This document shows positions 317-59,600 of a stretch of 64,000 nt of DNA, in pieces; positions within the stretch are counted from its first letter, which is position 1; each line of letters opens with the position of its first letter. Below the pieces are notes generated by a model. The model searched no databases. It was not told where the DNA came from and worked only from the letters and a program-made list of their open reading frames with translations. Origin of the DNA: Parcubacteria group bacterium GW2011_GWC2_42_12 (GTDB lineage: Bacteria; Patescibacteriota; Patescibacteriia; Patescibacteriales; GWC2-42-12); NCBI GenBank assembly GCA_000997945.1, contig LCCP01000002.1, forward strand, positions 14,284-78,283, read 5' to 3'. The position numbers and the translations under genes were made by a program.

Positions 317-1923
317 ATGGAAACATCAATTCAAACATTCGTAGAGATGTGTCAATGGGATACTGCAAAATTTTTAATTATCTCTGATAATGTTTTTGCG
401 CCTCTTATATATTATTCTCACTTTTTTGCTTTGATACCCTCTTTTTTTATAGGTTTAATTATTTTTTTAAAAGATAGGAAGTCTTTAATAAGCCAAGTTT
501 TATTTTTTATTACCACAACTTTTTCATTATGGGTATTTGCTGATCTTGTCTTATGGGCAAATGAAAAACCTGGCCTTATAATGTTTTTTTGGTCATTACA
601 AGTCATTATTGAGCCGATAATTTATGCTGCCTGTGTTTATTTCATTTACATATTTATAACCAAAAACGACATAAGTCTTAAAAAAAAGTTAGGTATCACA
701 GTTTTTCTTATACCAACCATTCTTTTTGCATCAACGAAATTTGCACTCCTCGGATTTGATTTAAGTAATTGTTATCGAGAAACAACAGAAGGGCCACTTA
801 CTTTATATGGATATGGTATTGAGATTATTTACACATTATGGATACTATTTTTTACATTCCGTAAATCTTGGGATGCAACAAGAGGAGAAAAAAGGCAGAT
901 CATTTTTATTGCGACAGGTATAATATTATTTTTACTTAGTTTAACTTCTGGAAATATCATAGGGAGTTTGACTGAAAACTGGACCTTAGCGCAGGCTGGT
1001 CTTTTTGGCATGCCAATATTCGTAGCATTTTTAGCTTATATGATTGTGAAATTTAAAGTGTTTAACATAAAACTAATTGGAGCACAAGCGCTTGTGTTTG
1101 CCCTTGGATTTTTGGTACTTGCCATATTATTTATAAGAAAGATTGAAAATGTCCGGGTGGTGGTAATTTTAACTTTATTATTTTCCAGCAGAGAGAAGAA
1201 CTGGCCAAACTTAATGTTGATTTGCAAAATCTCTTAAAGCAAAGGGAAGCCCTGGTGCATTTAGTTACCCATAAAGTTAAGGGCTCATTTACCAGATCCA
1301 AATACATTTTCGCCGAATTGCTGGAAGGCGCTTTCGGCGTTATTTCGCCGGAAATGAAGGACATAGCGGAAAAAGGTTTACGCTCGGATAATGAAGGCAT
1401 TAAGACGGTTGACTTGGTTTTAAGCGCGGCCAACCTGCAAGGCGGCAAAGTTAAATATGACATGAAACCGATTGATTTTAAGAAGCTGACCGAGGAAATT
1501 GTTAATAGTAAAAAAGAACAGGCCAGTCAGAGAGGCCTGAAATTAAAGGTCGAAATTAAAGCTGGCAGTTATAATATTTTGGGCGATGCCCCTTGGCTTA
1601 AAGAGGCGGCGCAGAGTTTCGTGGACAATGCTTTAAAATACACTTTGCATGGCAGCGTGACCGTCGGCCTGGAGAAGCGAAACGATAAAGTTATTTATTC
1701 CGTTAAAGACACTGGAGTGGGGCTTACCGCTGATGACAAGCAGAATCTTTTTAAAGAAGGCGGCCGAGGCCAGGACTCGTTAAGGATTAATGTGGACTCA
1801 ACCGGCTATGGATTGTATTCGGCCAAAATGGTTATTGAAGCGCATCAGGGCAGATGCTGGGCCGAATCGGCAGGCCAGGACAAGGGCAGTACTTTTTTCT
1901 TGGAATTGCCGAGACGGGGTTAA
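317..1923 (+). pseudogene. sensor histidine kinase (7TM N-terminal domain, H-box, HATPase_c), interrupted by a 1-nt frameshift in a T-run near 1150-1190
   Basis: Track ORFs 317..1237 (multi-TM) and 1222..1923 (H-box LVHLVTHKVKGSFT, G-boxes, C-term EAHQGRCWAESAGQDKGSTFFLELP). Frame +1 upstream of 1222 reads QQREEELAKLNVDLQNLLKQREALVHL, so the two parts are one gene in two frames. Paralogous to the intact HK at 32889..34481. Confidence 0.55.
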
Positions 1924-2689: not shown

Positions 2690-2815
2690 ATGGACAGCAC
2701 CGATTATGGTTTTTCCACGACCAAGATAGTTGTGGAAGCGCATCAAGGCAAGGGCTGGGAAGATATGGAGGTGGGCCAGGGCAGTATTTTTTATGTGGAG
2801 CTGCCGCTGGCGTAA
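2690..2815 (+). pseudogene. C-terminal remnant (41 aa) of a histidine-kinase HATPase domain
   Basis: Encodes MDSTDYGFSTTKIVVEAHQGKGWEDMEVGQGSIFYVELPLA, alignable with the C-termini of both HKs in the window (…GYGLYSAKMVIEAHQGRCWAESAG..GSTFFLELP). Confidence 0.5.
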
Positions 2816-2831
2816 AAATAAGCAGTATAAT

Positions 2832-4127
2832 ATGAATTGCCAACATTTCAAAAACTTCTTTTTATTTACTGCGGCCGTTATTTTAATTTTGGGCCTATCC
2901 ATTTCTTTCCAATCGCTGCTGGCCGCCTGGACGGCGCCTTCAGTTAATCCGCCGACTTGCGCTAGCGGCAAGCTGGGCTGCGACGCGCCTTTAAATATCG
3001 GGCCGTTGGCGCAAACTAAATTAGGCGCGCTACGAATTGTCAATCAAAATTATCCGGCCAGCCCTTATGGCCTAATTGTTGAGAACGGTAACATCGGCAT
3101 CGGCACAGCCGGGCCTGACAACAAGCTTACCGTCAACGGCGGCGGCTTAACCGGCAGTGGAATTAATAATGTTTTTCGTCTTTCGGGCGGGACCATGACC
3201 AGCGTGAATGACGCTACCGGCTTGCTTTTTATTCAGCGAGATGCCAATGATGACTATGGAGCCGCTATCCGTTCAGTCAACACGCAATCAACTCCCAATT
3301 GGCTTAATCCGCGTTTGGATTTTTTTGTTCAGAACCCTGATACCAATACGCAGGCGAACATCGGAGTAAAAATGAGCATCTTAGGCAACGGCAATGTCGG
3401 TATCGGCACAACCAATCCGTCGTCTAAACTGGAAGTGGCCGGCCAAGTTAAAATCACCGGTCCCTTAGCTGGTTTAGCCATTTCTGGACAGATTTTTGAT
3501 CATCAGACAGATAACTTTTTTTACCTTAATTCATTTGACGGCCTGCAGCTGCGCGTTAACAGCAATGGCGGCGCCGCTAATTTTCAAATTAATAATAGCT
3601 CCAACAGCACGGTTTTTACGGTTACCAACGCCGGCAGAATCGGCATTGGCACGACCAGGCCCACGGACGTTACTAAGCTGGATGTGATCGGCAAGGTGCG
3701 GATCGCGGATGGGACCGAGGGCGCGAATAAGCTCTTTGTTTCCAGCCCGGAAGGGATCGGTTCGTGGCAGAAGGCCTTGCCGGAGATGTACTTTGATAAA
3801 TGGTGCAGCGCGGACGGCACGACTTGCCTAACGCTGTTTGAATTGATCAATCGGCTGAACAACCCGCCGCAGCCGACTACGATCATTAACACTTCTTATG
3901 CTTGGGTTTATGGCGCTTGGAGCGGCTGGATTAACGTTGACGACGAGGATTGCTACGGACGGCCGTGCGTCTGGCAGTACCGCACGCGGAGCGTTACCTG
4001 CGTCGGCGACCAGAGCGGAACAATTGTCGCTAATGCCTATTGTTCGGGCGTGCCAGATCCTGCCTATGAGCGGCGGAGCGGCTCGTTAATTGCCCATAGT
4101 ATAAACAGCGGAAGCCATAAAATTATT
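2832..4127 (+). CDS. secreted repeat protein with IGIGTTxPxxKLxVxG (tail-fibre-like) repeats; no stop codon, runs in frame into ruvA
   Basis: Signal anchor MNCQHFKNFFLFTAAVILILGLSISF; repeats GNIGIGTAGPDNKLTVNG, GNVGIGTTNPSSKLEVAG, GRIGIGTTRPTDVTKLDVIG. The track gives a single 658-aa ORF 2730..4706; the first 34 codons overlap the HK remnant and are probably not translated. Confidence 0.5.
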
Positions 4128-4706
4128 ATGATCTCATATTTAAAAGGGAAAATTAAGCATAAAGCCGCTGGCTTTGTAATTTTAGAAGTAAGTAATATCG
4201 GCTATCAAATTTTTGTTGCCTCTTTGCTTCACGCCGATTTGAATCTAGGCCAGGATTTTGAATTTTGGACCCACCAGCAGGTGCGCGAAGACGGTTTAAA
4301 TTTATACGGTTTCAGCCGGCTGGAAGAGCTGGAATTATTTGAAATGCTGATAGGTATTTCCGGCATTGGTCCGAAATCGGCCCTCGGCATTATGTCAATC
4401 GCCACGGCGGCTGATATTAAGGAATCAATCGTGCGGGGCGATCCGGCTCTCTTAACTAAAGTTTCCGGCATCGGCCGGAAGACCGCGGACCGAGTGGTTT
4501 TGGAATTAAGGGAAAAAATTAGCAAGTTAAGTTTCAAAGATAATAAATTAACCAGAGGCGGCTTGGGTTCAAGCGACGAAATAGACGCTTTAATGGCCTT
4601 GGGTTATTCTTTGTCGCAAGCCAGAGAGGCCTTAAACGGAGTAGAGGCGAAGATAAAAGACAGCGGGGAAAGAATCAGGCAGGCGCTTAAAAAAATGGGG
4701 AAATAA
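4128..4706 (+). CDS. ruvA: Holliday junction DNA helicase RuvA
   Basis: MISYLKGKI...ILEVSNIGYQIFV (OB domain), LFEMLIGISGIGPKSALGIMS and VSGIGRKTADRVVLEL (HhH pairs), C-terminal domain III. Confidence 0.8.
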   Translation: MISYLKGKIKHKAAGFVILEVSNIGYQIFVASLLHADLNLGQDFEFWTHQQVREDGLNLYGFSRLEELELFEMLIGISGIGPKSALGIMSIATAADIKESIVRGDPALLTKVSGIGRKTADRVVLELREKISKLSFKDNKLTRGGLGSSDEIDALMALGYSLSQAREALNGVEAKIKDSGERIRQALKKMGK

Positions 4707-15806: not shown

Positions 15807-16628
15807 TTATAATTGACGGATTCTTTCCGAATAGGCAGTAAGAGGCATCTTATGAATAGAGTCTCTCAAGTCCTCCTTAGAAACATTAAACGCGTCAAGA
15901 GTTCCTCTTAGGGCGGATACGGCTACTGCCCAGGCGTCTCGCTCTTCCTTTAAAACATTTTTTCCGGCAAACTCGTTAAGTTTTTGGGGTAAGAAAAAGT
16001 GGAGGTATGGTGAATTATAAATTTTTCTGGCCGTCGATTGTTTCACTGCCGTCCCTAGACCTTTTAGGGCTCCCCCGAGAGTGTCAGAATCAGAAATAAT
16101 TTTTTGCACAACTGTTGTATGACCTATCTCATGCAAAAGAGTCATTATACCCAGGAAGCTGTTAGGAGAAAAATAACAAAACACTTTATTTTTAGCTAAA
16201 CTGCTATGGAAATTTTTATTATCTATGGCAAAAAATATATCACGAACTTCAAAATCTTTCATTAAATCCAGTTCATTACCCGACGGATTATCAATCGAAA
16301 GACCTACCAATCGTCGGAATTTACCGGCTTCAATATCTTGTTTAAGCGATTCGGGGATTTCGTTTGAGGTTGAATAGGAATTAATCTCCTGCTCGCTTAA
16401 TGTTTCGTAAGTATACTCTAGCGTCCAGCCGTCTTTTAATTCAACTTTTTCTTTACCACTTTTTCCGTATTCAATATTGGGGTTAAATAAGCGGCGTACA
16501 CTTTCCGGATGCTGTTCAAAATGTTCCTGTTTGGTTTTGTGTTTTTCCTTGTCTGGCAAGGGAGGCTCAAGACGTCTTTCAAGGTAATTTTTTTTTGGAG
16601 CTTCAAATTTTGGCATTTCAATTCCCAT
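15807..16628 (-). CDS. putative zinc metallopeptidase (HExxH)
   Basis: The track lists this ORF as '+', but only the reverse complement encodes it: 16626..16628 is CAT (ATG), and revcomp of 16100-16125 gives LLHEIGHTT. HEIGH motif; 273 aa. Confidence 0.5.
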   Translation of the reverse strand: MGIEMPKFEAPKKNYLERRLEPPLPDKEKHKTKQEHFEQHPESVRRLFNPNIEYGKSGKEKVELKDGWTLEYTYETLSEQEINSYSTSNEIPESLKQDIEAGKFRRLVGLSIDNPSGNELDLMKDFEVRDIFFAIDNKNFHSSLAKNKVFCYFSPNSFLGIMTLLHEIGHTTVVQKIISDSDTLGGALKGLGTAVKQSTARKIYNSPYLHFFLPQKLNEFAGKNVLKEERDAWAVAVSALRGTLDAFNVSKEDLRDSIHKMPLTAYSERIRQL

Positions 16629-26130: not shown

Positions 26131-26574
26131 ATGGCTTTAGAAAAATATCAGGCCAAAAGAAAATTTGATAAAACCTCCGAGCCCAAGGGCGAAGTTAAGA
26201 AAAAAAGCTTGTCGCGTTTTGTGGTGCAGAAACATCAGGCCAGCCACCTGCATTATGATTTTCGGCTGGAGCATGAAGGCGTGTTAAAATCCTGGGCCGT
26301 GCCTAAGGGTGTGCCAGAGCAGCCGGGAATTAAACGATTGGCCGTGGAAGTGGAAGATCATCCGGTGGAGTATATAAATTTTTCCGGCCGTATACCAGAA
26401 GGCGAATATGGCGCCGGCACCGTGGAAATTTGGGACAAAGGCAAGTGGCAAAAGTTAGGCGGCATCCTGGAACGAGGCAGTATGAAATTTAATTTAATTG
26501 GCAAGAAATTGAATGGAGATTATGTTTTAGTTAGGATGAAAGACAAAAAGAATTGGTTGATTTATAAAAAATAG
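26131..26574 (+). CDS. stand-alone DNA ligase D 3'-phosphoesterase (LigD-PE) domain protein
   Basis: VVQKHQASHLHYDFRLEHEGVLKSWAVPKGVP...GTVEIWDKGKW matches the LigD phosphoesterase signature. Confidence 0.7.
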   Translation: MALEKYQAKRKFDKTSEPKGEVKKKSLSRFVVQKHQASHLHYDFRLEHEGVLKSWAVPKGVPEQPGIKRLAVEVEDHPVEYINFSGRIPEGEYGAGTVEIWDKGKWQKLGGILERGSMKFNLIGKKLNGDYVLVRMKDKKNWLIYKK

Positions 26575-26576
26575 TT

Positions 26577-26606
26577 TTCCCCCTGACAAGGGGGAGCTAG
26601 AGGGGG
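26577..26606. repeat. GC-rich short palindromic element (intergenic copy)
   Basis: CCCCCTGACAAGGGGGAG-CTAGAGGGGG. Confidence 0.5.
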
Positions 26607-26610
26607 TTTT

Positions 26611-27018
26611 GTGAAAAGAAGCAAAAATTTAAAATATTTGCCTTATAATTCTGAACTAAAAGAAAAAGCTCGAGATTTGAGAAAAAATATGACTATTGCA
26701 GAAAAGAAACTTTGGCGAGAGTTTTTAAAAAGTCATAAATATAAGTTTACTCGCCAGAAGCCGATTGATAATTATATTGTTGATTTCTATTGCTCAGAAT
26801 TAGGTTTAATTGTTGAAGTTGATGGTACGACTCATTTGGATGATAAAGATATTTTATATGACAAGAAACGGACCATTAATTTAGCAAAATATGGATTAAA
26901 GATTTTACGTTTTTGGAATGATGATATATTAAGCGGGATGTATGTTGTGGGAGAAATAATTAATTGCGAAATAAATAAGATAACCCACCCCAACCCTCCC
27001 TTGTCAGGGAGGGGGTAA
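26611..27018 (+). CDS. DUF559 (Vsr-like endonuclease fold) protein with GC-hairpin-encoded C-terminus
   Basis: GTG start; LW.EFLK...F.RQKPIDNYIVDFYC....LIVEVDG..H....D..R...L...G..ILRFWN pattern of DUF559. The last 11 residues (THPNPPLSGRG) are encoded by the element CCCTCCCTTGTCAGGGAGGGGG. Confidence 0.6.
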   Translation: MKRSKNLKYLPYNSELKEKARDLRKNMTIAEKKLWREFLKSHKYKFTRQKPIDNYIVDFYCSELGLIVEVDGTTHLDDKDILYDKKRTINLAKYGLKILRFWNDDILSGMYVVGEIINCEINKITHPNPPLSGRG

Positions 27019-27059: not shown

Positions 27060-30000
27060 ATGGAGAAGTATAATCATCAGAAAATCGAAGCCAAATGGCA
27101 GAAAAAGTGGAATAAAGAAAAGCTTTATAAGACTTCGGGTAATAAAGATAAGCCAAAATATTATGTTCTGGATATGTTTCCTTATCCTTCCGGATCAGGC
27201 CTGCATGTCGGCCACCCCAAGGGCTATATTGCCACGGATATCTTCGCGCGCGCCAAGATGATGCAAGGGTATAATGTGCTCCACCCTATGGGCTGGGACG
27301 CTTTCGGCTTGCCCACGGAAAATTATGCCATGCAAAATAAAATTCATCCGTGCGCGGCCACGGAAAAAAATATTGCCACTTTTAAAAGGCAATTAGGCCT
27401 CTTGGGTTTTACTTACGATTGGGATAGAGAGATAAATACTACTGATCCGGAGTATTATAAATGGACGCAATGGACATTTTTGAAAATGTTTGAACGCGGC
27501 CTAGCTTACGAATCTTATGAGCCAATTAACTGGTGCCCGAAATGCCAGACCGGTTTGTCTAACGAAGATCTGGAAGATGGCAAGTGCGAGCGCTGCGATT
27601 CGGTCGTGGAAAAGAAGCCCATGCGCCAATGGCTGCTGAAAATTACCGATTACGCCGACCGCCTGCTTAGTGACCTTGAGAAATTGCCGGCCTGGGAAGA
27701 GTCCATTAAAGAAATGCAGAGAAATTGGATCGGGCGGAAAGAAGGCATAAACATAGATTATAAAATTGAAGGGCTGGACAGTAAATTATCGGTTTTTACC
27801 ACTCGGCCGGACACTAATTTCGGCGCGACTTTTATCGTGGCGGCGCCGGACAGCGTTTTTACGGCCGAAAAAATCGGCAGTTTTCCCAACCAGGCGGAAG
27901 TTAAGAAATATGTAGAGGCGGCCAGGCATAAAACCGAATTGGAGCGCATTAGCGAAGGTCGGAAAAAAACCGGCGTTTTCACCGGCCTTAACGCCATTAA
28001 TAATCTGACCGGCCGGAAAATGCCGATTTATATCAGCGATTTTATTCTAGCTTCGGTCGGCACTGGCGTGGTCGTCGGCGTGCCCGGCCATGACTTAAGG
28101 GATTTTGAATTCGCCCAGGCCATGGGGCTGGAAATTATTAGGGTTGTCGTCGGAGCGGACGGCGATACTTCGCCCATAACTAAAAAAGAGCAGGTTCAGG
28201 AAGAAGCCGGCACCATGATAAACAGCGGTTTGCTTGATGGCATGAATATTCATGACGCCACCAGAAAAATAATGGACCATATTGAAACCAAGGACTGGGG
28301 CAAGAAAATCGTAAGTTATAAAATAAAAGACTGGGTGTTTAGTCGGCAAAGATATTGGGGCGAACCGATCCCGATTATCCATTGCCAGGCCTGTAAAAAT
28401 AAGAAATACAATTTTATTTTTATTCATGGTTATGGCAGCAGTGGCAAAGAAGGCTGGAGGCCATGGCTTAAAAGAGAATTAGAAGGCCGAGGACATAAGG
28501 CATATTCGCCCGATTTGCCCAACAGCTTAAAACCTAATGTTGATGAACAGGCTGATTTTATAATTAAGAATGTTGAACTTGGGGAAGATACAATTTTAAT
28601 AGGCGGCAGTTTAGGGGGAGTGGTTATTATGAGGATTTTAGAGAAAATTAAAATTAAGATTGCAAAAGCCGTATTTATTGATTCAGTATTTAAACCAGAG
28701 TTTGCCGATCATGATAGGCCGGATGTGGCCGCGGCATGTGATTGGAAATTTAATTTTAAAAAAATTAGTCAAGCGAGCAGTAGTTTTGTAGTATTGGCGG
28801 ATAGTGATTTTCCAGTGATAAAGAAAGAACATTCCGAAGAGTTAGCGAAAAAATTTAATACTAGCGTTACTTATGTTAAACCAAACGGCCAGCATTTCTC
28901 TAAATCCGCCACTGAACCGGAGATTTTGAAGATTTTTGGAAATTTAGGAATAGTTATCGTGCCGTACGAAGATTTACCCCTGAAACTGCCGGAAGTGAAA
29001 AATTACCAGCCCACTGGCACGGGCGAGTCGCCGCTGGCGAATATTAAGGAGTGGGTTAATACCAAGTGTCCGCAGTGCGGCGGGAGGGCTTTGCGCGAGA
29101 CCAATACTATGCCGCAATGGGCTGGGTCAAGTTGGTATTATTTAAGATATATTGATCCAAAAAATAAGACAGCGTTGGTTGATAAAGATAAAGAAAAATA
29201 TTGGTCGCCGGTGGATTTTTATGTCGGCGGCGCCGAACATGCTACGCGGCATTTAATTTACGCGCGTTTCTGGCATAAGTTTCTATTTGACATTGGCGCG
29301 GTAAATTATGATGAACCGTTTACGCGGCTGCAGCATGTGGGTTTAATACTGGCCGAGGACGGGCGCAAGATGAGCAAGCGCTGGAACAATGTTATTAACC
29401 CAGATGAAATCGTGGAAAAATACGGTGCTGACGCCATGCGTATTTATGAAATGTTCATGGGGCCGTTTAGCCAACCTTGCGCTTGGAGTACAAAGAGTTT
29501 AATCGGTGGCAGGAGATTTCTAGAAAAGATTTGGCATTTTTATCACCAAGTAAAGCTATTTGATTGCGGCGGCGTCGGTTGCGATAAAGCGCCGACAGGC
29601 CTGCCGCAGCTAATGCATAAGACCATAAAGAAAGTTACCGAGGATATTGAAAATTTTCATTATAATACGGCAATCAGCCAAATGATGATTTTCATGAATT
29701 TTGCCAGCCAGCTTGACTCTGTGCCGCGCGGGGCTTTAGAAAATTTTCTAAAGATCTTAGCGCCGTTCGCGCCGCATCTTACGGAAGAACTTTGGTCAGG
29801 GCTGGGGCATCCCTCCGCGAAGCTCGGGACAAGTAAGCAAAGCATCTTTAAAGAAGAATGGCCAAAATATAATCCGGAATTAGTTAAAGATGAAACCATA
29901 AATTTGGTGATTCAAATAAATGGCAAGGTGCGTGATACCGTTGAAGTTTTTGCTGATATTAGCGAAAAAGAAGCGAGAGAGTTTGCTCTGGATAGTGAGA

Positions 30001-30080
30001 AAATAAAGAAGTGGTTGGATGGGAAAGAAATAAAGAAAGTAATTTTCGTTAAGGGAAAGTTAGTTAATGTAGTTATCTAA
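27060..30080 (+). CDS. leuS: leucine--tRNA ligase with an inserted alpha/beta-hydrolase (RBBP9/YdeN-like) domain
   Basis: HVGH (HIGH) motif, CP1 editing domain, KMSKR (KMSKS). About 190 extra residues (nt ~28410..28960) sit between the zinc-knuckle halves HCQAC and CPQCGG: IFIHGYGSSGKEGWRPWLKREL...ILIGGSLGG (GxSxG). Confidence 0.93.
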   Translation: MEKYNHQKIEAKWQKKWNKEKLYKTSGNKDKPKYYVLDMFPYPSGSGLHVGHPKGYIATDIFARAKMMQGYNVLHPMGWDAFGLPTENYAMQNKIHPCAATEKNIATFKRQLGLLGFTYDWDREINTTDPEYYKWTQWTFLKMFERGLAYESYEPINWCPKCQTGLSNEDLEDGKCERCDSVVEKKPMRQWLLKITDYADRLLSDLEKLPAWEESIKEMQRNWIGRKEGINIDYKIEGLDSKLSVFTTRPDTNFGATFIVAAPDSVFTAEKIGSFPNQAEVKKYVEAARHKTELERISEGRKKTGVFTGLNAINNLTGRKMPIYISDFILASVGTGVVVGVPGHDLRDFEFAQAMGLEIIRVVVGADGDTSPITKKEQVQEEAGTMINSGLLDGMNIHDATRKIMDHIETKDWGKKIVSYKIKDWVFSRQRYWGEPIPIIHCQACKNKKYNFIFIHGYGSSGKEGWRPWLKRELEGRGHKAYSPDLPNSLKPNVDEQADFIIKNVELGEDTILIGGSLGGVVIMRILEKIKIKIAKAVFIDSVFKPEFADHDRPDVAAACDWKFNFKKISQASSSFVVLADSDFPVIKKEHSEELAKKFNTSVTYVKPNGQHFSKSATEPEILKIFGNLGIVIVPYEDLPLKLPEVKNYQPTGTGESPLANIKEWVNTKCPQCGGRALRETNTMPQWAGSSWYYLRYIDPKNKTALVDKDKEKYWSPVDFYVGGAEHATRHLIYARFWHKFLFDIGAVNYDEPFTRLQHVGLILAEDGRKMSKRWNNVINPDEIVEKYGADAMRIYEMFMGPFSQPCAWSTKSLIGGRRFLEKIWHFYHQVKLFDCGGVGCDKAPTGLPQLMHKTIKKVTEDIENFHYNTAISQMMIFMNFASQLDSVPRGALENFLKILAPFAPHLTEELWSGLGHPSAKLGTSKQSIFKEEWPKYNPELVKDETINLVIQINGKVRDTVEVFADISEKEAREFALDSEKIKKWLDGKEIKKVIFVKGKLVNVVI

Positions 30081-50786: not shown

Positions 50787-53618
50787 ATGCTTACTCGGCC
50801 AAAATATCCTAGAATTTTGCAGCTAGCTGTCTATTTGTTTATCGCGACAACAGCTATTTTTTTATTGGTCCCGCTAAGCGGGATTTTAGCCGCTAATCTG
50901 GATGTTGGCTTAGAGTACGCGGCCGGCACCGGTTTAAGCAATGCTTTAGACATTAGAATAATAATCGCTCGGATTATTAGGATTGCTCTGGGCTTTTTAG
51001 GCATCATCGCGGTGGGCCTAGTTATGTATGCCGGCTTCCTGTGGATGACCAGCGGCGGCAATGAAGAAAAGATTGAGCAGGCGAAAAAGATATTGCAAAA
51101 CGCGGTTATCGGCTTAATTATCATTCTCATCTCTTTCGCGATCGTCAGTTTTATTTTAAATCTACTGATCGGCGCGACCACTGGCGGCCAGAACGGTCCG
51201 GGTAGCGGGCCACCAAGTCGTTACGGCTTATCGGCTTTAGGCAATGGCATTATTCAATCGCATTACCCGGCTCGTGATCAGAAAGAAGTGCCGCGGAATA
51301 CCAGCATTATTATTTCGTTTAGGGAACCGATGAAAGCCGATACTTTATGCGTTAATCCTATCTCTCAAGGGACAGGCAATCCAGATAAATGTGAAGGGGA
51401 TAAAAATACAACCAAGGGCGATATTAATACAAGTGTAATTGGGATTTTTAAGAAAAGCGACGAAGATAAGTGTATCGATAATAATTTGCCTTTAGCTAGC
51501 TGTCCTTCTTTTGTCAGCGCTGAAGTTTATTCGACTCCTGACGGCAAAACTTTTGTTTTCGTGCCGAATAACTATTTAGGTTCGCCCTCGGAATACATTA
51601 ATTATACGGTTTATTTAGGCAAGGGCTTATTAAGACAGACAGGAGATTTGGCTTTTCCCAGCGGATTTGCAAAAGATTATGGCTGGAGTTTTGAAGTAAG
51701 CAATAAAATTGATTTGACGCCGCCGCAAGTTAACCCGAACGGCGTGTTTCCTCCGCCGGATAATCTAAAAGACATAACGGTGCCGGGAGTCGGCGCGCAA
51801 GCAAGAGGCACGATTATGGTTAATTCGCCGCGGTTTTATAGCGGCGCTTCGGTGTCTGGCATAACTCCGGCAGCCAGCGTGAGTATTAGTGAAAATTGCC
51901 AACAAGATGGAGATTTTAGCATAAATATTGCCAGTATTGCCAATGGTTTGGTTGCCACTCTATACCAAGGCACTTTTGATCCTAATAATCCGATTAATTT
52001 CATTAAGCTTGGTCAAGGAGTAATTAATGGTCAAACTGTTACTTTTTCTTCATGCAATCTAAGATTAACGATTGGCTCCGGTAATTTTGGCGCAGGAAAT
52101 TTATGGACATTTACTATAAATCCGATGATCACCGCCGATACCATAACCGTTGGCAATATAACTTATACTGCCAGCGACGCATCAGGGATCAATAATTTTG
52201 TAGTCGGATCAACAAATTTGACTACCGCTCAGAACATAAGGAATGTTTTAGGAGCCAATCCGGAGGTGGACATAGTGGTCGGAACGGATGATGTCGTTAC
52301 CATTAAAGCTAAACTCGCCGGCGCGGCCGGTAATAGCATCAATTTATCAAGCAGTAATGCCACGAGACTGCCGGTCGTTGCTATGGACGGCGGAGCCGAC
52401 AAAGTAGATAGGGTGACGGTTAACGGCAAAAAAGATCAACCCATGAACTCGGCTCTGCAGATTAATTTCAATGAAGCCATCATGCCGTTAACGGTTTCCG
52501 GCACCAGCGCCGAAGTTAAAGATTTTATTAGAGTGGTTAATGAAGGAGGGACTAAAATCGCCGGAGTAGTATGTACGGAAAATTATGAGTGCTTGTCTTA
52601 TAGATGCGAAGGATCGTCTGGCAATAAAGCATGTGTTACTAGCGATGCTCTAAAATCGGATGGCGATTCCTGTCAGTCTGACGGACAATGTTTATCGTAT
52701 AAATGTGAAAGTAGTAAATGCGTTGGTGATTCTTTGGCTGGCAAATTCGCGGTTTCCAATCAATATCAGACGGTGGAATTTTTATCCGATAAAGAGTGCG
52801 GTTTTAATTCCTGCGGCGAGAAGATTTATTGTTTGCCGGCCAATAGCCATTTAAGGGTTGAATTAAAAGCAGCCAAACTGGTTGACTGCGGCACTGACAA
52901 TTGCGCCAGCAAGAGCCCTTTTAATACTTGCGATTCGGGCAAACCGGCCTGTAAAGATGCCAATGATAAATATTATCCTCAGGCAGATCCGGCCAAGCTT
53001 ACGACGGTTGACGGCGGTATAACCGACGCGGCTTTTAATTCTCTGGATGGCAATCGTGACGGTTCGGCTTATGGTCCGGCGAGTTTTTATAATGAAAATA
53101 TACCGCCAACGGTACCGCCAGCGACTGACGGAGATAATTTTAAATGGTCATTTTTCATCAGTGATGTGCTTGATTTAATTCCGCCGAAGATCAAAGACAC
53201 GATACCAATATTAAAGGATCCGTTGCCGGTTAATTTAACTGACAGGATTACTATCAGCTTTGATAAAGTTATGTTGTCGTCACGCCTAACTACCGGAAGT
53301 TTAATGATTAAAAATGGCCAGCAGAATATACAACATTATTTGCTTAATTTAAGAAACCTTGCTGATCAACCCGTGGGCTATTGGGCGACCAATCTCGGGC
53401 AACTTAACGGAACCGGAGAGATAATTTCCACTGACGCCTATATCAATCATTCCTCATTTAACGCCAGTTCAACTTATAAAGCGCAAGCCGGCTCGGGCTT
53501 AAAGGATATTTATCAAAATTGTTTCTTGCCTTGCGCCAGCGAGTCTGGTGTTTGCGCCGGAGTTGATAGCCAAGAGCCATGCTGTTGCAATGGCACTCCG
53601 GCCGCGAGCTGTCCATAG
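50787..53618 (+). CDS. large secreted Cys-rich surface protein (943 aa) with VirB2/TrbC-like N-terminal membrane module
   Basis: N-terminal signal anchor + hairpin IIRIALGFLGIIAVGLVMYAGFLWMTSGGNEEKIEQAKKILQNAVIGLIIILISFAIVSFIL; extracellular region with paired Cys motifs (CLSYRCEGSSGNKACV, CLSYKCESSKCV). Confidence 0.6.
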   Translation: MLTRPKYPRILQLAVYLFIATTAIFLLVPLSGILAANLDVGLEYAAGTGLSNALDIRIIIARIIRIALGFLGIIAVGLVMYAGFLWMTSGGNEEKIEQAKKILQNAVIGLIIILISFAIVSFILNLLIGATTGGQNGPGSGPPSRYGLSALGNGIIQSHYPARDQKEVPRNTSIIISFREPMKADTLCVNPISQGTGNPDKCEGDKNTTKGDINTSVIGIFKKSDEDKCIDNNLPLASCPSFVSAEVYSTPDGKTFVFVPNNYLGSPSEYINYTVYLGKGLLRQTGDLAFPSGFAKDYGWSFEVSNKIDLTPPQVNPNGVFPPPDNLKDITVPGVGAQARGTIMVNSPRFYSGASVSGITPAASVSISENCQQDGDFSINIASIANGLVATLYQGTFDPNNPINFIKLGQGVINGQTVTFSSCNLRLTIGSGNFGAGNLWTFTINPMITADTITVGNITYTASDASGINNFVVGSTNLTTAQNIRNVLGANPEVDIVVGTDDVVTIKAKLAGAAGNSINLSSSNATRLPVVAMDGGADKVDRVTVNGKKDQPMNSALQINFNEAIMPLTVSGTSAEVKDFIRVVNEGGTKIAGVVCTENYECLSYRCEGSSGNKACVTSDALKSDGDSCQSDGQCLSYKCESSKCVGDSLAGKFAVSNQYQTVEFLSDKECGFNSCGEKIYCLPANSHLRVELKAAKLVDCGTDNCASKSPFNTCDSGKPACKDANDKYYPQADPAKLTTVDGGITDAAFNSLDGNRDGSAYGPASFYNENIPPTVPPATDGDNFKWSFFISDVLDLIPPKIKDTIPILKDPLPVNLTDRITISFDKVMLSSRLTTGSLMIKNGQQNIQHYLLNLRNLADQPVGYWATNLGQLNGTGEIISTDAYINHSSFNASSTYKAQAGSGLKDIYQNCFLPCASESGVCAGVDSQEPCCCNGTPAASCP

Positions 53619-53657: not shown

Positions 53658-53699
53658 GTTCGTGAGATTGCTTCGTCGCTGCCGCTCCTCGCAATGACA
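53658..53699. repeat. partial repeat (right half) overlapping the start codon of the giant gene
   Basis: GTTCGTGAGATTGCTTCGTCGCTGCCGCTCCTCGCAATGACAAA; the ATG of 53694.. lies within CAATGACA. Confidence 0.55.
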
Positions 53700-56600
53700 A
53701 AAATCATTAAAAAAATTCTGTTGATTGTTTGCTTGCTGATAGCGGTTTTCACCGTGGCTCATTTTGCTTTGGCGCTTGATGTGGGTCTAGATGAAGTATC
53801 TTCGGAAATTGGTTTAGCAGTGGTTGATCCGAGAATCATCGTGGCTCGAGTTATAAATATTATATTGGGGTTTTTAGGTATTATCGCGGTTGGTTTAATT
53901 ATTTACGCCGGCTGGTTGTGGATGACGGCGGCCGGTAATGAAGAAAGAATCCAGCAGGCCAAGAAAATTTTAATTAACGCGGTTATTGGTTTAGTAATTA
54001 TTCTCTCCAGTTTCGCCATCGCCAGTTTTATTCTTTCTAGGTTAATAGCGGCGACTAGCGGCGGATCAGGTGGCGGCGCCTGTGGCGGCGGTTCAACCTG
54101 CGCTCCTGATCAGCACTGTTGCTGGGATGTTTGCGTGCCTATCACTACTCCTTGCGGATCAATACCGCCCCCCGATTCCAACTCTTTTAGAATTATTTCA
54201 ACTATACCGAGGAATTTAGACGCTGGCGCGATAAGAAATGTGGTGATTAAAGCTTTCTTTAATAAAGCCGCGGATACGGTTAATTTAGATACCAATTTCA
54301 GAGTGGAAAAAATCGCTGATATTGATCCGGTAACAGGAGAGCCAACAGATCCGGCAGATCCAGGCTTACCGGCAATAATTACTAACGCCAGCAGGGCATT
54401 TGCCAATGGCGGCCGGGTGGTTACTTTTAAAGATACCACTGCTTGCGGCGACGAAAAAAATACACCCAATTGCTTTGCCGCCTGGAGCAAATTCAAGGTA
54501 ACGATTAACGGTAGCGCTAATCCCCTTAACGGCGCTAACGGTTTATTCTCAATTGATAATAAACCTCTAAGTTGCAGCGCCGGCTCAATCTGCCAATTTG
54601 TCTTTTCCACTAATAATTTAATTGATGCCAGCGGGCCGCAGGCCGGCATAGTGCCGACGCAGATCTGTAAAACTGAAGTTGGAGTTCCCATGAAGTCAGA
54701 TGCTAATACTGTTACGGGCTGGGGCCGTGATGATGTAGGTATTTCAGGGCTAAGTTTTTATCAGCAAAAGTTAATTCCGCTTCCGGCCGGAACCGAAATT
54801 CAAGCGCTAGTTGTACCGGGTAACGAAGAAAAATATCAGTCAGTTGAACATACTTATCTTACTACCGGCATGACCGTGGGCGATACTTATAAATTGAGAG
54901 TGGAAGCCGTTGATCTGGCCGATCAATTGGCTTCTAGTGATTTTTCTACCACGATCAGACCAGGCCATTGTTGTAATGGCATAAAAGACGGTACGGAAAC
55001 TGACATAGATTGCGGCGGTGTTGGTTTAGATAGATGCGGCGCCTGCGATGGCGCGGCTTGCGCGACCGATATCTCTATACCGACTAATAACAATAACTGT
55101 AGTGCCAATAATAATTTATGCGCTTCGCAATTTTGCACCTCGCAAAATTCTGGTGTGACATCGTGCCAAGATGCTGGCTATGCGGCTGGCACTACCAATT
55201 GCTGTCTCTGCCAGCGCCCGCCGGTTATCACCGGAGTTTTTCCGGTCGGCGGTTTTTGTTCAAACGATAATAATAAGACATGTTTAATTAATGGTGATTG
55301 TGGTACAGGTAATACCTGTAATACGAATACGCCTAACGGCGCGGTTGGCAATTTTGTCACTATCGTGGGCAGGAATTTTGGCGCTAAGCCATCATCAGCT
55401 GGTTCGGGCGTATTTTTTAGCGGCACGACGGCGGGAACTTGGGTGAAAGCTACGCTGGCCGATGATGATAGTCTGGGTAATAGTCATTGTACGGATAATG
55501 TTTGGAGCGACGGACAAATTATTGCTATTGTACCGGCGGGGACGGCGGGTAATCCGATTAAGAATAATAGTCCGATTAATTTTTTCGTCAATACTATTTC
55601 TCGGCCCGGCATCTGCGAGCTTACTCCGAATAGTGGAAAGACGAATGATCTAATTACTTATTATGGCATTGAACTAACTGGTAATAAAGCTTACTTTGGC
55701 AATTGGACAGCCAGCACTTCAGCTCTAAGTTCAATATTCACAGACGCAAGCGGTAAGCAGGGAACCGCCCAAGTTTCCAATATTCAAACCGGCCGAACTA
55801 CCAGCTTTGTCGCTAAGGGATTGGTTTTTAGCAATTATTTAAGTTTTACCAAAGAGCCGGAGCCATATAGCGGACCGGTAATTTCTTCTTTTGATCCAAA
55901 GCAGGGTTCGGCCGGGCAATATGTAACTATAAGTGGCCGAGGTTTTGGTAATACTAAGGGAGCGAGTGAGGTTTATTTTGGCACCGTTGCTGAAGATAAA
56001 AAAGCTGGTTACAATTTTCCGGCAATTTGCGCTGATTCAATTTGGAGCGATAAGCAGGTAATAGTTAAGGTACCGGCGAAGCTAAGCGATCCGGAAGTTA
56101 GAGGAAGTTATAAAATATCCATGAAGATTGCTAAGGGTGGTGGCCAATACTGGGAGATTGATACCAACTCTTTAAATCCATCACAATTTGATTTTAATCC
56201 AGCTCTGCCACTCGCGCCGAGTTTATGTAAGATTGAACCGATCATGGGACAGACCAATAGTCCTATAAGTTTGTGGGGCGAGTATTTTGGAGTAAATAGC
56301 GAAGATTATAGCAAGGTTAGATTTCAACTTAATCATGATCAGGTCGGCGCGGCTGTTACTTCTTGGGGCGTGGATCCGGAAGCAGTGCCAGCAGGCACTA
56401 GAAAACCGGACAAAGCCGTGACTACGGTTCATCAGGATACCGTAACCGGACCGGTTAAGGCGGTTAAGACCGAGGTAATTCAGGGCACTGCCAAGGAGTT
56501 AATAGGCAATGGTTTGAATTTTACGGTTGGCGTTTGCCAGAATACGGCAGAATGCGGTTCAGAAAGTTTATGTTGTTCGATCGGTACGCCTTACGCCGGA

Positions 56601-59600
56601 CAATGCAAAGCTGGTGCTGACGCGCAAACAGTTTGTTTCCCGGAAATAAAATCTTGCGTTTATGAGTGGAATTTTAGTACTTTGGGCAAGACACAATGTT
56701 TAGCAACTCAGACTGTGTGCGGACGTTCTTGCTGTGCTCCAGGCGATGTCTGCGTTGATCCGAACGGCAATAACGGTAACGGCAGGTGTGATAGCATAAA
56801 TTGTCCAAATGGTGTCACCTGCGGTAATAATTGTTGTACAGTCAGGGCTATTTGTAGCGATGGGTTATGTTCATCTCCTCAAGTTTGCGCAGCTGGTCAG
56901 GTATCCTGTAACATTCCAGGCGCGCCAGCCGGCACCCCGCCGAATTGTTGCAATAACGGTCAATGCAATCAGTATACCGGCCAGTGCGATAGTTGCCCGC
57001 CGAACCAACCCGATCAATGCGGCGACGGCAGTTGCTGTAGTGATACGGCTAATTGTCGAGATATTGATAACAATCCAGCCACCACACTAACTGTTTGCGC
57101 TGATCCAGAATCCTGTTCCGGCTATGGCGGCGCGACCCAGGGTTGCTATGGCCAACTGTGCCCGAACTCGCCGGGTAGTTGTTCAACCAGGCCGGCGCAG
57201 ACAAACGTTGATACTGGTGTAAGTTGCGGTAATGATGCTTGCTTAGCCATAAGCCAATGCCGAGGCGCGGCTGTTGGGCAAAATTTGTGTTCCTATAATG
57301 CAAGCTTTAATAAGTGTCAGAAAATTTCTGACATTTGCAGTTTATCAAGGCCATTATCAGGGAACGCAAGTGTCACAGAAAAATGCGGTACGGTTGATAA
57401 TAAAAATGTTTGGTATTATGACAGCAATCAAACCTGCGTTAGCGGTTATACCAAAAGTATTGATAGAAGCAAATGTTTGGGCGCGGCTTGCAATATTTGC
57501 TCAACCGGTTTTAGTTGCCAGTCAGACGGTGGAGCCGGAATTTGCGTTACTAATGCAAATATTTGTCCGGTTAGTTCAATTTGCAATGCCAGTGGTAGAT
57601 GTATTAAAACCGACAACGCCGCTTGCGAATGCTGTTGTGATATAACACAAAACGATAGTACCAACGGTAATAATCCCGGCTGTTGTACCGGTCTTAGCTG
57701 TGGTGGCACTTGCGGCGCAGATACTAGTTTAACTGACGGTCCTGGCGGTAGTAGTAATATAGGGTTGGGCCAATGCACCGGCTGTACTAATGCGGGTTCG
57801 GATCAAGCCGCTCGTAACGCGGCTTGCAACTGTTTGGGTACCAGCGGAAAATTTTGCGATACGGCCGGCGCGGGCGGTAAGGGAGTTTGTAAAGATTGCG
57901 CGCAACTATCAACCGCTGGTTTATGTTCAGGTTTAGGCGCAGGCACCTGCTGTGTTGATGCCAAAAACAGTAATGCTTGCCGCAAAAATACGGCATACAA
58001 TGCCTCTGGAGGGCCGGTTTATGCTACCGGCGCGACAGGAGATGCAAATAATTATTGCGCTTATTATAATTGCGGTACCGGCAGTTCGGCCAATCAGTGC
58101 CAAGCCGCGCCGTTAAAAAACGGTAATTATAAAACAACCACTTGTGATAACAAATGCGCTTTTCCGCCGCGATTCGGCCAGGAGTGCGTCAAGATTTTGC
58201 CAGCGCCAGCCGCGCCGCAATGCGATAATAGCATCTGCGCCGGTTTTTCTTGCTTAAACGATACATATCCAACCGTCTTGACGCCACCCAATAATTGCGG
58301 TATTTGCTGTTGCGATCCGAATGCCGTGACCGATCAATGTAGCGCTATTAATGATAAATTGTCTTGTATAAAAAATAAAGGGTTATGCGCGGGCGCTAAC
58401 CGCGGTTTGTGTTGCGGCTGTTCTAAAGATAGCGAGTGCGGCGATGCGGCCACGGCCGGTTGCGGATCTGACACTTGCTGCCAGGCCAGGCCAAGTGTTA
58501 TTTCTACCGTACCGGCTAATGGAGCGACTAATATTTGCCGCAACACCATGATTAAAGCTACTTTTAATCAGGCCATGCAGATAGGTACTTTGGCCGGCAA
58601 TGTTATCGTGGCCGGTGATTATGGCGCCAGCCAATGCCCGGCCGGCACCGAGTATTTAACCGCTGTTTATAAACCTACTATTCTAGCTAGGGTAAAATCA
58701 TTTTTATCTAAACTGCCGTTGGTTAATAAATTATTCGCTTCTGACGCCTGGGCGCTGCCGGGAAATTTCTGTACTGTTTTGGGCTCGGCCAGCGGCTATA
58801 TTAGAACCGGCGCAAGCGGAGTCGAAACAACCATTATGGAATTTAAATTACAAAAAGCGCTAGAGCCGAATCAGAAATATTATGTTATAATAAAAGGAGA
58901 TTCTGATTTAACCGACGCGGTAAATAACGGAGTTTTAAGCCAAGCTGGCGTTGGCATGAACGGGCAAGGTTATAATTCTGTGAATCCGGCCATCTTCAAC
59001 GGCTTATCTTTTGTTAATGCTAAAATTTGGTCATTTACAACTAAAGCCAGCGCCAGTTCTGACAGCGGCATTTGCCAAGTGGATTCAGTTTCAATCATTC
59101 CGTCAAGTTATTTATTTAAGACGGCGGCAAGCGAAAAGATTTTTCAAGCCACAGCTTATTCGGCGGACGGGCAACCGATCACGCGGCTTCCGGCCGTATA
59201 TAACTGGCGATGGGACTGGACGGTTGATAATCAAGCAGTAGTAAAATTTAAGGAGGGAGTAGCAGCGGCTGATAATTCCGAACAAACCTTAGTGGCCCAG
59301 AACATTAAAGATGCCAATACTTTACTTCATGCCAAAACTACTATTACTCAAGACGCAATTGGTTCAACTATGGGCGCGACCGAAGAAGCCGCGGCGCAGA
59401 TTTATGTATTTTTATGCGCTAATCCTTGGCCGCTTTTTAAAGATGACGGTTCTTGGGAGCCGTGGCGCGACTCGTCTAACTGCAACGTTCCTGGCACCGC
59501 TGGCACCGGTTGTCCAGATACTGGTTTTGAATTATATTATTGCCGCGATGCCGGCGGCGAAGGAACGGCTGATGATTTGCCGGCGATTTTAAGCAATACG

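Follow-up and report, generated by a model that had tools for sequence, protein, structure and literature searches.

A serine hydrolase domain nested in the zinc knuckle of a Patescibacteria leucyl-tRNA synthetase

The leucyl-tRNA synthetase (LeuRS) gene leuS of Parcubacteria group bacterium GW2011_GWC2_42_12 encodes a complete YdeN/RBBP9-type serine hydrolase domain nested inside the zinc knuckle of the synthetase. The gene lies in a stretch of 64,000 nt from contig LCCP01000002.1 (assembly GCA_000997945.1; positions 14,284-78,283, forward strand), here termed the window, and the nested segment is here termed the insert. Few enzymes are as conserved as the aminoacyl-tRNA synthetases, and those of bacteria rarely possess extra catalytic domains. 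The nested architecture is already annotated by automated pipelines; what makes this protein interesting is that such domains recur and move from site to site and from host to host, that the CP1 region of the synthetase is mosaic, and that the catalytic acid of the hydrolase appears to be relocated.

The two halves of the interrupted zinc-binding motif, HCQAC at aa 441 and CPQCGG at aa 670, are separated by 224 residues, as against 41 in Thermus thermophilus LeuRS. In a phmmer alignment to the latter (PDB 1h3n) query residues 1-445 correspond to T. thermophilus residues 1-442 and query residues 630-765 to residues 443-579; thus, the extra segment comprises exactly aa 446-629, placed between T. 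thermophilus Cys442 and Gly443. The same boundaries are supported by an alignment to the empty site of a relative (P0012, see below). The insertion is in frame at the tip of the ZN-2 knuckle, 25 residues past the exit of CP1, with host residues neither lost nor duplicated. An earlier note, made from the sequence alone, had placed about 190 extra residues at 28410-28960 of a 1006-aa LeuS, between the two halves of a zinc motif. This was essentially right: the exact extent is 184 aa (nt 28395-28946), the interrupted motif is the bacterial-specific ZN-2 module, the quoted motifs are found (IFIHGYGSS at residue 453 and GGSLGG at 515), and the identity of the host agrees with its family score, its motifs and the list of open reading frames (ORFs). 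Below we refer to the ZN-2 knuckle as site B of LeuRS, and to a second location of related domains, at approximately residues 235-242, just ahead of the threonine-rich motif at the CP1 entrance, as site A. The insert and its key residues are as follows:

28395..28946 (+): nested YdeN/RBBP9-type α/β serine hydrolase domain, aa 446-629, 184 aa (alignments, Pfam PF06821, AlphaFold2, Foldseek)
28425..28430 (+): HG oxyanion-hole motif, His456-Gly457, kept in 97% and 92% of 170 aligned domains
28602..28616 (+): nucleophile elbow G-G-S517-L-G; Ser in 99% of the 170 domains and in all 91 embedded homologues, equivalent to RBBP9 Ser75
28680..28682 (+): Asp541, first residue past strand β6, the proposed relocated catalytic acid, invariant in the B1 clade
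28809..28811 (+): Phe584, at the canonical catalytic Asp position (RBBP9 Asp138; alignment, with RBBP9 numbering checked)
28893..28895 (+): catalytic His612, kept in 100% of the 170 domains, equivalent to RBBP9 His165

The assignment of the insert to the RBBP9/YdeN-type hydrolases with a GxSxG elbow, also proposed in the earlier note, is borne out by profile searches and structure prediction alike. The Pfam Ser_hydrolase model (PF06821, cut-off 22) gives 34.7 bits with the whole protein (E = 2e-8) and 38.4 bits with the isolated segment (E = 1.6e-9), and Abhydrolase_6 and Abhydrolase_1 likewise score above their cut-offs. A profile of the insert family recovers YdeN (1uxo; E = 1.9e-31) and RBBP9 (E = 3e-23) from the PDB. 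An AlphaFold2 model of the 184 residues, computed from an alignment of 30 homologous inserts, is an α/β domain with a mean pLDDT of 96.5 and a pTM of 0.93. Foldseek searches of the PDB with this model return Bacillus subtilis YdeN (1uxo) first, followed by human RBBP9 (2qs9, 7oex, 9fcr), with TM-scores of 0.81-0.84 (the best, 0.84, with 1uxo and 2qs9/7oex) and root mean square deviations of 2.2-3.0 Å (2.5-2.6 Å for 1uxo and 2qs9), and bigger α/β hydrolases rank far behind. In a model of the full-length protein the secondary structure of the insert is unchanged, and its 10-residue blocks have pLDDT values of 75-97. According to these models the nested domain folds independently and leaves the fold of its host undisturbed. 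The trans-editing families AlaX/tRNA_SAD, YbaK and DTD gave no Pfam match up to E = 1 with either the whole protein or the insert.

To examine the active site we used an alignment of 170 domains, namely 92 embedded ones (91 homologues and the window's own) and 78 stand-alone ones, with identities down to 21-60%. The nucleophile, base and oxyanion residues of the nested domain are under strong constraint, as listed above. The canonical acid of these enzymes is an Asp situated just before a Pro in the loop after strand β7; the corresponding column 584 contains Asp in 78 of 78 stand-alone homologues, and Phe, Tyr, Arg, His, Glu or Ala in the clade to which the window's domain belongs (B1). Every member of B1 has instead an Asp at position 541, a column otherwise occupied by Ala, Ser or Gly, and strand β6, which immediately precedes it, spans residues 536-540 in both the isolated and the full-length model. 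An acid is found only at 541 in 30 sequences, only at 584 in 133, at both positions in 3 and at neither in 4, though this count is phylogenetically non-independent and reflects essentially one clade. Because Asp541 is invariant in the clade lacking Asp584 and the two positions are nearly mutually exclusive, the triad was probably relocated and not lost, with Asp541 most likely taking over the role of the acid. The three sequences with both acids (P0125, P0126 and P0129) are possible intermediates. The Ser-Asp-His triad sought in the earlier note thus stands in part: Ser517 and His612 are present, the canonical Asp is replaced by Phe584, and Asp541 is proposed in its stead.

Besides the non-independence of the count, certain features of the site tell against an active hydrolase with such a triad. 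The canonical Asp is missing from the insert, a Gly (GGSLGG) takes the place of the His found just before the nucleophile in 91% of the family, and Asp541 aligns two residues ahead of RBBP9 Tyr99, which lines the α-amine site. Alternatively, therefore, Asp541 may serve in substrate binding rather than in catalysis. Asp581 and Asp583 were also considered as substitute acids and appear less likely; Asp581 is kept also in site-A domains that retain Asp584, so it does not represent a clade-specific compensation.

The host of this domain is a bacterial-type LeuRS with the following features:

27060..30080 (+): leuS ORF, bacterial-type leucyl-tRNA synthetase, 1006 aa, stop codon included (ORF list)
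27204..27215 (+): HIGH motif, HVGH, aa 49-52; H49, G51 and H52 invariant in an alignment of 45 LeuRS
27534..27596 (+): ZN-1 module CPKC...CERC, Cys159/162/176/179, aligned to T. thermophilus Cys159/162/176/179
27744..28319 (+): CP1 editing domain, aa 229-420 (Pfam PF13603, 185.7 bits)
28383..28394 (+): first ZN-2 knuckle, Cys442-x-x-Cys445, directly upstream of the insert, aligned to T. thermophilus Cys439/Cys442
29067..29078 (+): second ZN-2 knuckle, Cys670-x-x-Cys673, aligned to T. thermophilus Cys484/Cys487; C670 and C673 invariant
29367..29381 (+): KMSKS motif, KMSKR, aa 770-774; K770, M771, S772 and K773 invariant in the 45-LeuRS alignment
29382..30077 (+): anticodon-binding and C-terminal tRNA-binding domains (Pfam Anticodon_1, 852-968; aligned to T. 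thermophilus 638-876)

The ORF scores 993.9 bits against the NCBIfam equivalog TIGR00396 (leuS_bact; cut-off 548.4) in two matched stretches with the insert between them, and Pfam recognizes tRNA-synt_1, tRNA-synt_1_2 and Anticodon_1 in addition to the PF13603 editing domain. The editing motifs of CP1, read from the translation and from invariant alignment columns, are intact (TTRPDT at 247-252 and GHDLRD at 343-348, the GTG...HD.RD region), and all 8 zinc-binding cysteines, four in ZN-1 and four in ZN-2, are kept. The full-length AlphaFold2 model has a pLDDT of 86.2 and a pTM of 0.79, and superimposes on solved LeuRS structures with TM-scores (TMt) of 0.75-0.85. Thus, the host is intact, with its catalytic, editing and zinc-binding motifs present and its fold kept in the model, and the window is predicted from these features to encode a functional LeuRS that leucylates tRNA-Leu. 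The ZN-2 module is specific to bacterial and mitochondrial LeuRS. In another bacterial-type LeuRS, aminoacylation was lost when one or the other ZN-2 cysteine pair was mutated (PMC4005665).

The leucine-specific domain of the T. thermophilus and Escherichia coli enzymes (T. thermophilus approximately 580-637) is absent here at aa ~765-771, and likewise in all listed relatives. Directly 5' of leuS (26131..27018, +) are a stand-alone LigD_N (3'-phosphoesterase) gene and a DUF559 endonuclease-like gene, with PvlArgDC further upstream. No tRNA genes were found within the 64-kb window, and the copy number of leuS is likewise that of the window, not of the whole genome.

The history of the insert appears to differ from that of its host. 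In P0012, the closest relative in CP1, the knuckle is uninterrupted (HCEKC directly followed by GAVAVPEKDLP, versus HCQAC, 184 aa and GIVIVPYEDLP in the window). The DNA of the two genes is 75-83% identical on either side of the insertion site with no junction duplication, and at the protein level the identity is 81% for CP1, 81-88% for the N-terminal half and for the stretches next to the site, and 64% for the C-terminal domain. Across 40 site-B carriers the pairwise identities of LeuRS core and insert are uncorrelated (Spearman rho 0.04). The nearest insert (P0010/L001, 60% identical) sits in a LeuRS that is itself only ~60% identical to that of the window, and LeuRS proteins that are 63-69% identical carry at the same position a different hydrolase, B2, which is 21-31% identical, has a canonical SDDDP motif and clusters with stand-alone proteins. 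A neighbour-joining tree places up to four separate hydrolase lineages at site B, with B1 and B2 at minimum robustly distinct.

The surrounding gene is itself heterogeneous. Relative to the LeuRS L013, the N-terminal and post-insert core is 89-91% identical (third-position identity 0.64-0.69), CP1 38% (third-position 0.39) and the insert 44% (0.45); more widely, in LeuRS with flanks 80-91% identical to those of the window (comparisons included L013, P0018 and P0012), CP1 is either 71-81% or 32-46% identical. These split identities of CP1 and flanks indicate that leuS is a recombination mosaic, the central part of which, with CP1, ZN-2 and the insert, has another history than the ends. Given the empty site in a close relative, the decoupled histories of insert and host, and the mosaic gene, the insert was probably acquired laterally and not inherited vertically with the gene, and we infer that it was more likely gained in the lineage of the window than lost from every neighbouring one. 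The simplest route of acquisition would be homologous recombination in the extremely conserved flanking sequences ...SRQRYWGEPIPxxHC and ...NYEPTGTGESPLA...CPxCGG.

The composition of the insert is likewise atypical, with a GC content at third codon positions (GC3) of 0.31 versus 0.52-0.55 for the neighbouring leuS segments and 0.46 +/- 0.07 across the remaining ORFs of the window, where only 1.6% of equal-sized windows are as low. Against reading this as a mark of arrival is the fact that inserts lie below the GC3 of their hosts in 57 of 67 loci, with a mean offset of -0.078, the window's offset of -0.19 being in the extreme fifth. As the offset is systematic across loci, the GC3 dip is only partly evidence of recent transfer; the deficit of nested hydrolases could stem from weaker codon selection or from repeated transfer from AT-richer donors.

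Domains of this kind recur in LeuRS. Among the 120 best relatives of the window's LeuRS, about 40 carry PF06821 (from NCBI, JGI, ENA and Logan assemblies), 39 having an insert at the ZN-2 site; named sources include Parcubacteria, Falkowbacteria, Magasanikbacteria and Uhrbacteria, and JGI labels some of these relatives 'leucyl-tRNA synthetase/predicted alpha/beta hydrolase family esterase'. When the insert was used as query, exhaustive HMMER searching recovered 1319 proteins at E <= 1e-3, and a word-indexed homologue search with the insert alone recovered just one stand-alone hydrolase; tblastn found no paralogue of the insert elsewhere in the 64-kb window. The domain may also occupy site A, or, as in P0058, lie inside CP1 with ZN-2 uninterrupted. 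Scanning the species representatives of GTDB with two peptide patterns yielded 315 confirmed loci, the best 80 of which were examined. About 60 of these 80 encode a LeuRS in which the domain occupies site A or site B (15 at site B), and the labels cover a wide range of Patescibacteria lineages (Saccharibacteria, Paceibacterota, Levyibacteriota, Doudnabacteria and others). Nine of the best 80 of the 315 are labelled as DPANN, 7 of them encoding a bacterial-type LeuRS with the domain at site A (L017, L018, L021, L024, L027, L030 and L039, from metagenome-assembled genomes labelled Woesearchaeota, Pacearchaeota and Iainarchaeum); these reflect either gene transfer between the candidate phyla radiation (CPR) and DPANN or mis-binning.

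The domain also extends to other synthetases and beyond them. In an isoleucyl-tRNA synthetase (IleRS)-like enzyme from a Saccharibacteria-labelled metagenome-assembled genome (L073), LMWPc and Ser_hydrolase domains are nested just ahead of WTTTPWTLP, a position homologous to site A, and in a valyl-tRNA synthetase (ValRS)-like enzyme (L032) a His_Phos_1 domain and three tandem hydrolases follow ...SRQIWFGHQVPVWH, a position homologous to LeuRS site B. Further hosts include another ValRS, alanyl-tRNA synthetase (AlaRS), Der/EngA, TsaD, a SecA fragment and an M1 aminopeptidase, and fusions are also seen with adenylate kinase (Adk) and a methyltransferase. LeuRS accounts for 137 of 165 embedded copies, and IleRS-like enzymes, ValRS or AlaRS for about 12 more, counts that are biased by the seeding of the search with a LeuRS copy. 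From this distribution we infer a nesting-prone hydrolase subfamily that repeatedly colonised the class Ia synthetases of Patescibacteria. The nesting of small hydrolases in tRNA synthetases is apparently an undescribed habit of CPR bacteria; in the literature covered, which does not extend to all journals, no published description of a LeuRS-nested serine hydrolase or of the wider pattern was found.

Several other insertions were encountered in these synthetases. Many Patescibacteria LeuRS (e.g. P0013, P0025, P0028, P0029, P0044, P0148 and P0204) contain a CP1 insert of 110-156 aa at the equivalent of window aa ~364-374, which is a NUDIX domain (PF00293) where Pfam recognizes it, and some carry both an insert at this site and the hydrolase, reaching 1120-1320 aa. 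P0018 and P0040 have inserts of 218-226 aa at site A that are not recognized by Pfam. The LeuRS P0124 (998 aa) contains an IS200-like Y1 transposase domain (PF01797, E = 5e-14) at aa 269-374, in frame near the start of CP1, together with the hydrolase at ZN-2. The ZN-2 site also receives short unrelated inserts of 22-47 aa, probably helical, in P0014, P0049, P0064, P0097, P0112 and P0114, which indicates that the ZN-2 loop tolerates insertions generally.

Given the strict conservation of its catalytic residues, the nested domain is probably an active hydrolase, with Ser517, His612 and Asp541 as its proposed triad. RBBP9 is to our knowledge the only characterised member of the family. It is a serine aminopeptidase that needs a free α-amine, and Leu/Ile, Met, Phe, Tyr and Trp are the residues with which its acyl-enzyme adducts form (PMC8866121); in the account of Shenoy et al. 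(2020) relayed in PMC7730578 it hydrolyses the valyl ester prodrug valacyclovir. Based on this chemistry, our best guess is that the substrate of the insert is an α-aminoacyl ester or amide, with which the domain, like RBBP9, would form an acyl-enzyme from an α-amino acid bearing a free amine. One option is that it acts as an extra deacylase of mis-acylated or stray aminoacyl esters, tethered beside the CP1 hinge; another is that it is an aminopeptidase that frees hydrophobic amino acids from peptides to supply the synthetases of cells unable to make amino acids. Both options would fit a host range of LeuRS, IleRS-like enzymes, ValRS, AlaRS and an M1 aminopeptidase.

Taken as a whole, a LeuRS bearing a laterally acquired, nested hydrolase with a relocated acid and aminoacyl substrates is the best explanation, and one that we regard as fairly likely. 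The part of it that couples the function of the domain to the substrates of the synthetase is proposed tentatively and is somewhat less likely than not. The earlier note had offered an extra deacylase/esterase activity or a parasitic insertion as alternatives; the strictly kept catalytic residues speak for an active enzyme, and the patchy, laterally mobile, multi-host distribution shows that the module does not depend on LeuRS. Weighing against the coupling, moreover, close relatives such as P0012 function without the insert, which is hence not needed for LeuRS activity; the same domain occurs in unrelated hosts (Der, TsaD, SecA, the M1 peptidase and the Adk fusion), so its function may be independent of the host; and CP1 editing is intact, leaving no obvious need for a further deacylase. 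The intact CP1 motifs also lead us to reject the idea that the hydrolase compensates for a dead editing site.

The strongest competitor, less likely than not though somewhat more probable than coupling taken by itself, is that the domain is a passenger: an active hydrolase whose function is independent of leucylation. By settling in a tolerant surface loop encoded by an essential gene that is expressed constitutively, a small housekeeping hydrolase would gain co-expression and protection from loss, and in symbionts with small populations such nesting might proceed as a neutral or selfish ratchet. The presence of the same subfamily in, or fused to, Der/EngA, TsaD, SecA, the M1 peptidase, Adk and the methyltransferase is in keeping with this, as are the NUDIX, LMWPc, His_Phos_1 and Y1 transposase domains that occupy neighbouring loops of class Ia synthetases, the permissive ZN-2 loop with its short unrelated inserts, and the absence of the insert from close relatives. 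It is harder to reconcile with the concentration of embedded copies in LeuRS and its class mates (137 of 165, with about 12 more in IleRS-like enzymes, ValRS and AlaRS, subject to the LeuRS-seeded bias), with the independent entry of lineages as distinct as B1 and the stand-alone-like B2 into the same LeuRS site, or with the homology of the IleRS-like and ValRS sites to LeuRS sites A and B, both of which adjoin CP1.

A bolder reading is rather unlikely as a whole. Here the hydrolase would belong to a set of mobile in-frame cassettes, comprising the serine hydrolase, NUDIX, low-molecular-weight phosphatase, histidine phosphatase and Y1 transposase domains, that in Patescibacteria and DPANN would move between alleles, sites and paralogous genes for class Ia synthetases through recombination in ultra-conserved flanks. 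Their population biology would be intein-like, but they would never be spliced out. In LeuRS the cassette would provide a third hydrolytic site for α-aminoacyl esters or amides, which might proofread aminoacyl species or free hydrophobic amino acids from peptides for auxotrophic cells.

That the insert is instead a pseudo-enzyme, which has lost catalysis and now functions as a structural or protein/RNA-interaction module, might be suggested by the replacement of Asp584 by Phe and of the His before the nucleophile by Gly. This is improbable: Ser517, His612 and the HG motif are kept in 97-100% of the embedded copies across deep divergence, which is unexpected without catalytic constraint, and a compensating, invariant Asp541 is found exactly in the clade that lost Asp584.

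Least of all, and with hardly any probability, the segment could have arisen in assembly as a chimera, or be an intein or some other stretch that is spliced from the mRNA or protein. An in-frame, patchy insertion of atypical GC3 at a conserved site of an essential gene does recall intein biology. However, a separate ENA contig of 51.5 kb encodes the identical protein amid the same genes (PvlArgDC, LigD_N and DUF559 upstream), and dozens of metagenome-assembled genomes from four sources share the architecture, ruling out a chimera, while the junction residues and the lack of a Hint domain rule out an intein. Specifically, the junctions C445/K446 and L629/G630 (...GNL/G) have no His-Asn and no Cys, Ser or Thr, Pfam detects no Hint or intein match, and the full-length model is confident across both junctions. 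The earlier note's view that this is not an intein is hence upheld, and the chimera that it had named as a possible pitfall is dispelled by the independent contig and the approximately 40 relatives from the four sources.

Certain other genes of the window deserve mention. In the 658-aa ORF at 2730..4706 (+), the N, HHH and C domains of RuvA are confined to aa 467-656 and the preceding 466 residues have no Pfam match; the ORF is possibly a fusion or an over-extended call from a TTG start. Two genes at 50787..53618 and 53694..60989 (+) encode proteins of 943 and 2431 aa with N-termini like those of type IV secretion system (T4SS) pilins and Ig-like, fn3 and TIG repeats; large proteins with such repeats are typical of CPR surface proteins. 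The ORFs at 317..1237 (+; GC3 0.26), the product of which resembles the N-terminal region of 7TM histidine kinases, and at 15807..16628 (-; GC3 0.34) lie below the window mean of 0.46 and may be of foreign origin.

The significance of this architecture is that a second, apparently active hydrolase is predicted inside a zinc knuckle whose cysteines are essential in another bacterial-type LeuRS, and that relatives of the nested domain lie next to the editing domain, at homologous positions, in the LeuRS, IleRS-like and ValRS enzymes of ultra-small symbiotic bacteria. Should the domain act on aminoacyl substrates, it would constitute a new kind of module for translation quality control or amino-acid supply. 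Should it be a passenger, it would be a clear natural case in which domains are nested in frame time and again, and exchanged laterally, inside an essential gene. Such a case would help to explain the origins of multidomain enzymes and to engineer synthetases with permissive insertion sites. The apparent relocation of the acid from 584 to 541, with three sequences holding both acids, would be a small natural experiment in active-site rewiring.

Comparison with known systems places the insert nearest to YdeN (1UXO) and RBBP9 (2QS9, 7OEX), with which it shares a minimal α/β-hydrolase fold of ~180 aa (TM 0.84), the HG oxyanion motif, the GxSxG elbow, the catalytic His and a PNxxxP motif. It differs from them in being nested in another enzyme, whereas YdeN and RBBP9 stand alone, in its low sequence identity to them (19-24%), and in having Phe in place of RBBP9 Asp138 after β7 and an Asp after β6 instead; its activity is predicted. 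An acid repositioned to follow β6 rather than β7 is found in other α/β hydrolases, namely in LinB and DhaA as against DhlA among the haloalkane dehalogenases and in the pancreatic lipases. The swap of the LinB/DhaA type resembles that between Asp541 and Phe584, though the families differ and in the insert it is deduced from covariation alone. Within the same enzyme, CP1 is likewise a hydrolytic domain inserted in the Rossmann fold, and the site-A variants lie at its entrance; however, CP1 has an unrelated fold without a serine nucleophile and is ancient and universal in LeuRS, IleRS and ValRS, whereas the insert is lineage-restricted, patchy and dispensable. Were the nested domain to deacylate aminoacyl-tRNA, it would be a functional analogue of the free-standing trans-editing deacylases AlaX, YbaK/ProXp and DTD and would provide a further hydrolytic site for proofreading; these differ from it in fold and catalytic mechanism. 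Domains nested in synthetases or appended to them are a familiar theme, CP1 being one example. A precedent for a class Ia synthetase with an extra catalytic domain is provided by NCBIfam NF040702 (isoleucine--tRNA ligase, N-acetyltransferase domain-containing), in which, however, the added domain is a GNAT and not a hydrolase, and which the window's protein does not match (72.9 bits versus a cut-off of 1999). Finally, the insert resembles inteins in its in-frame placement where an essential gene is highly conserved, the clean empty site in close relatives, its patchy distribution and its apparent lateral spread, but differs from them in having no splicing motifs, homing endonuclease or Hint fold, and in being itself an enzyme that is most likely retained in the mature protein.

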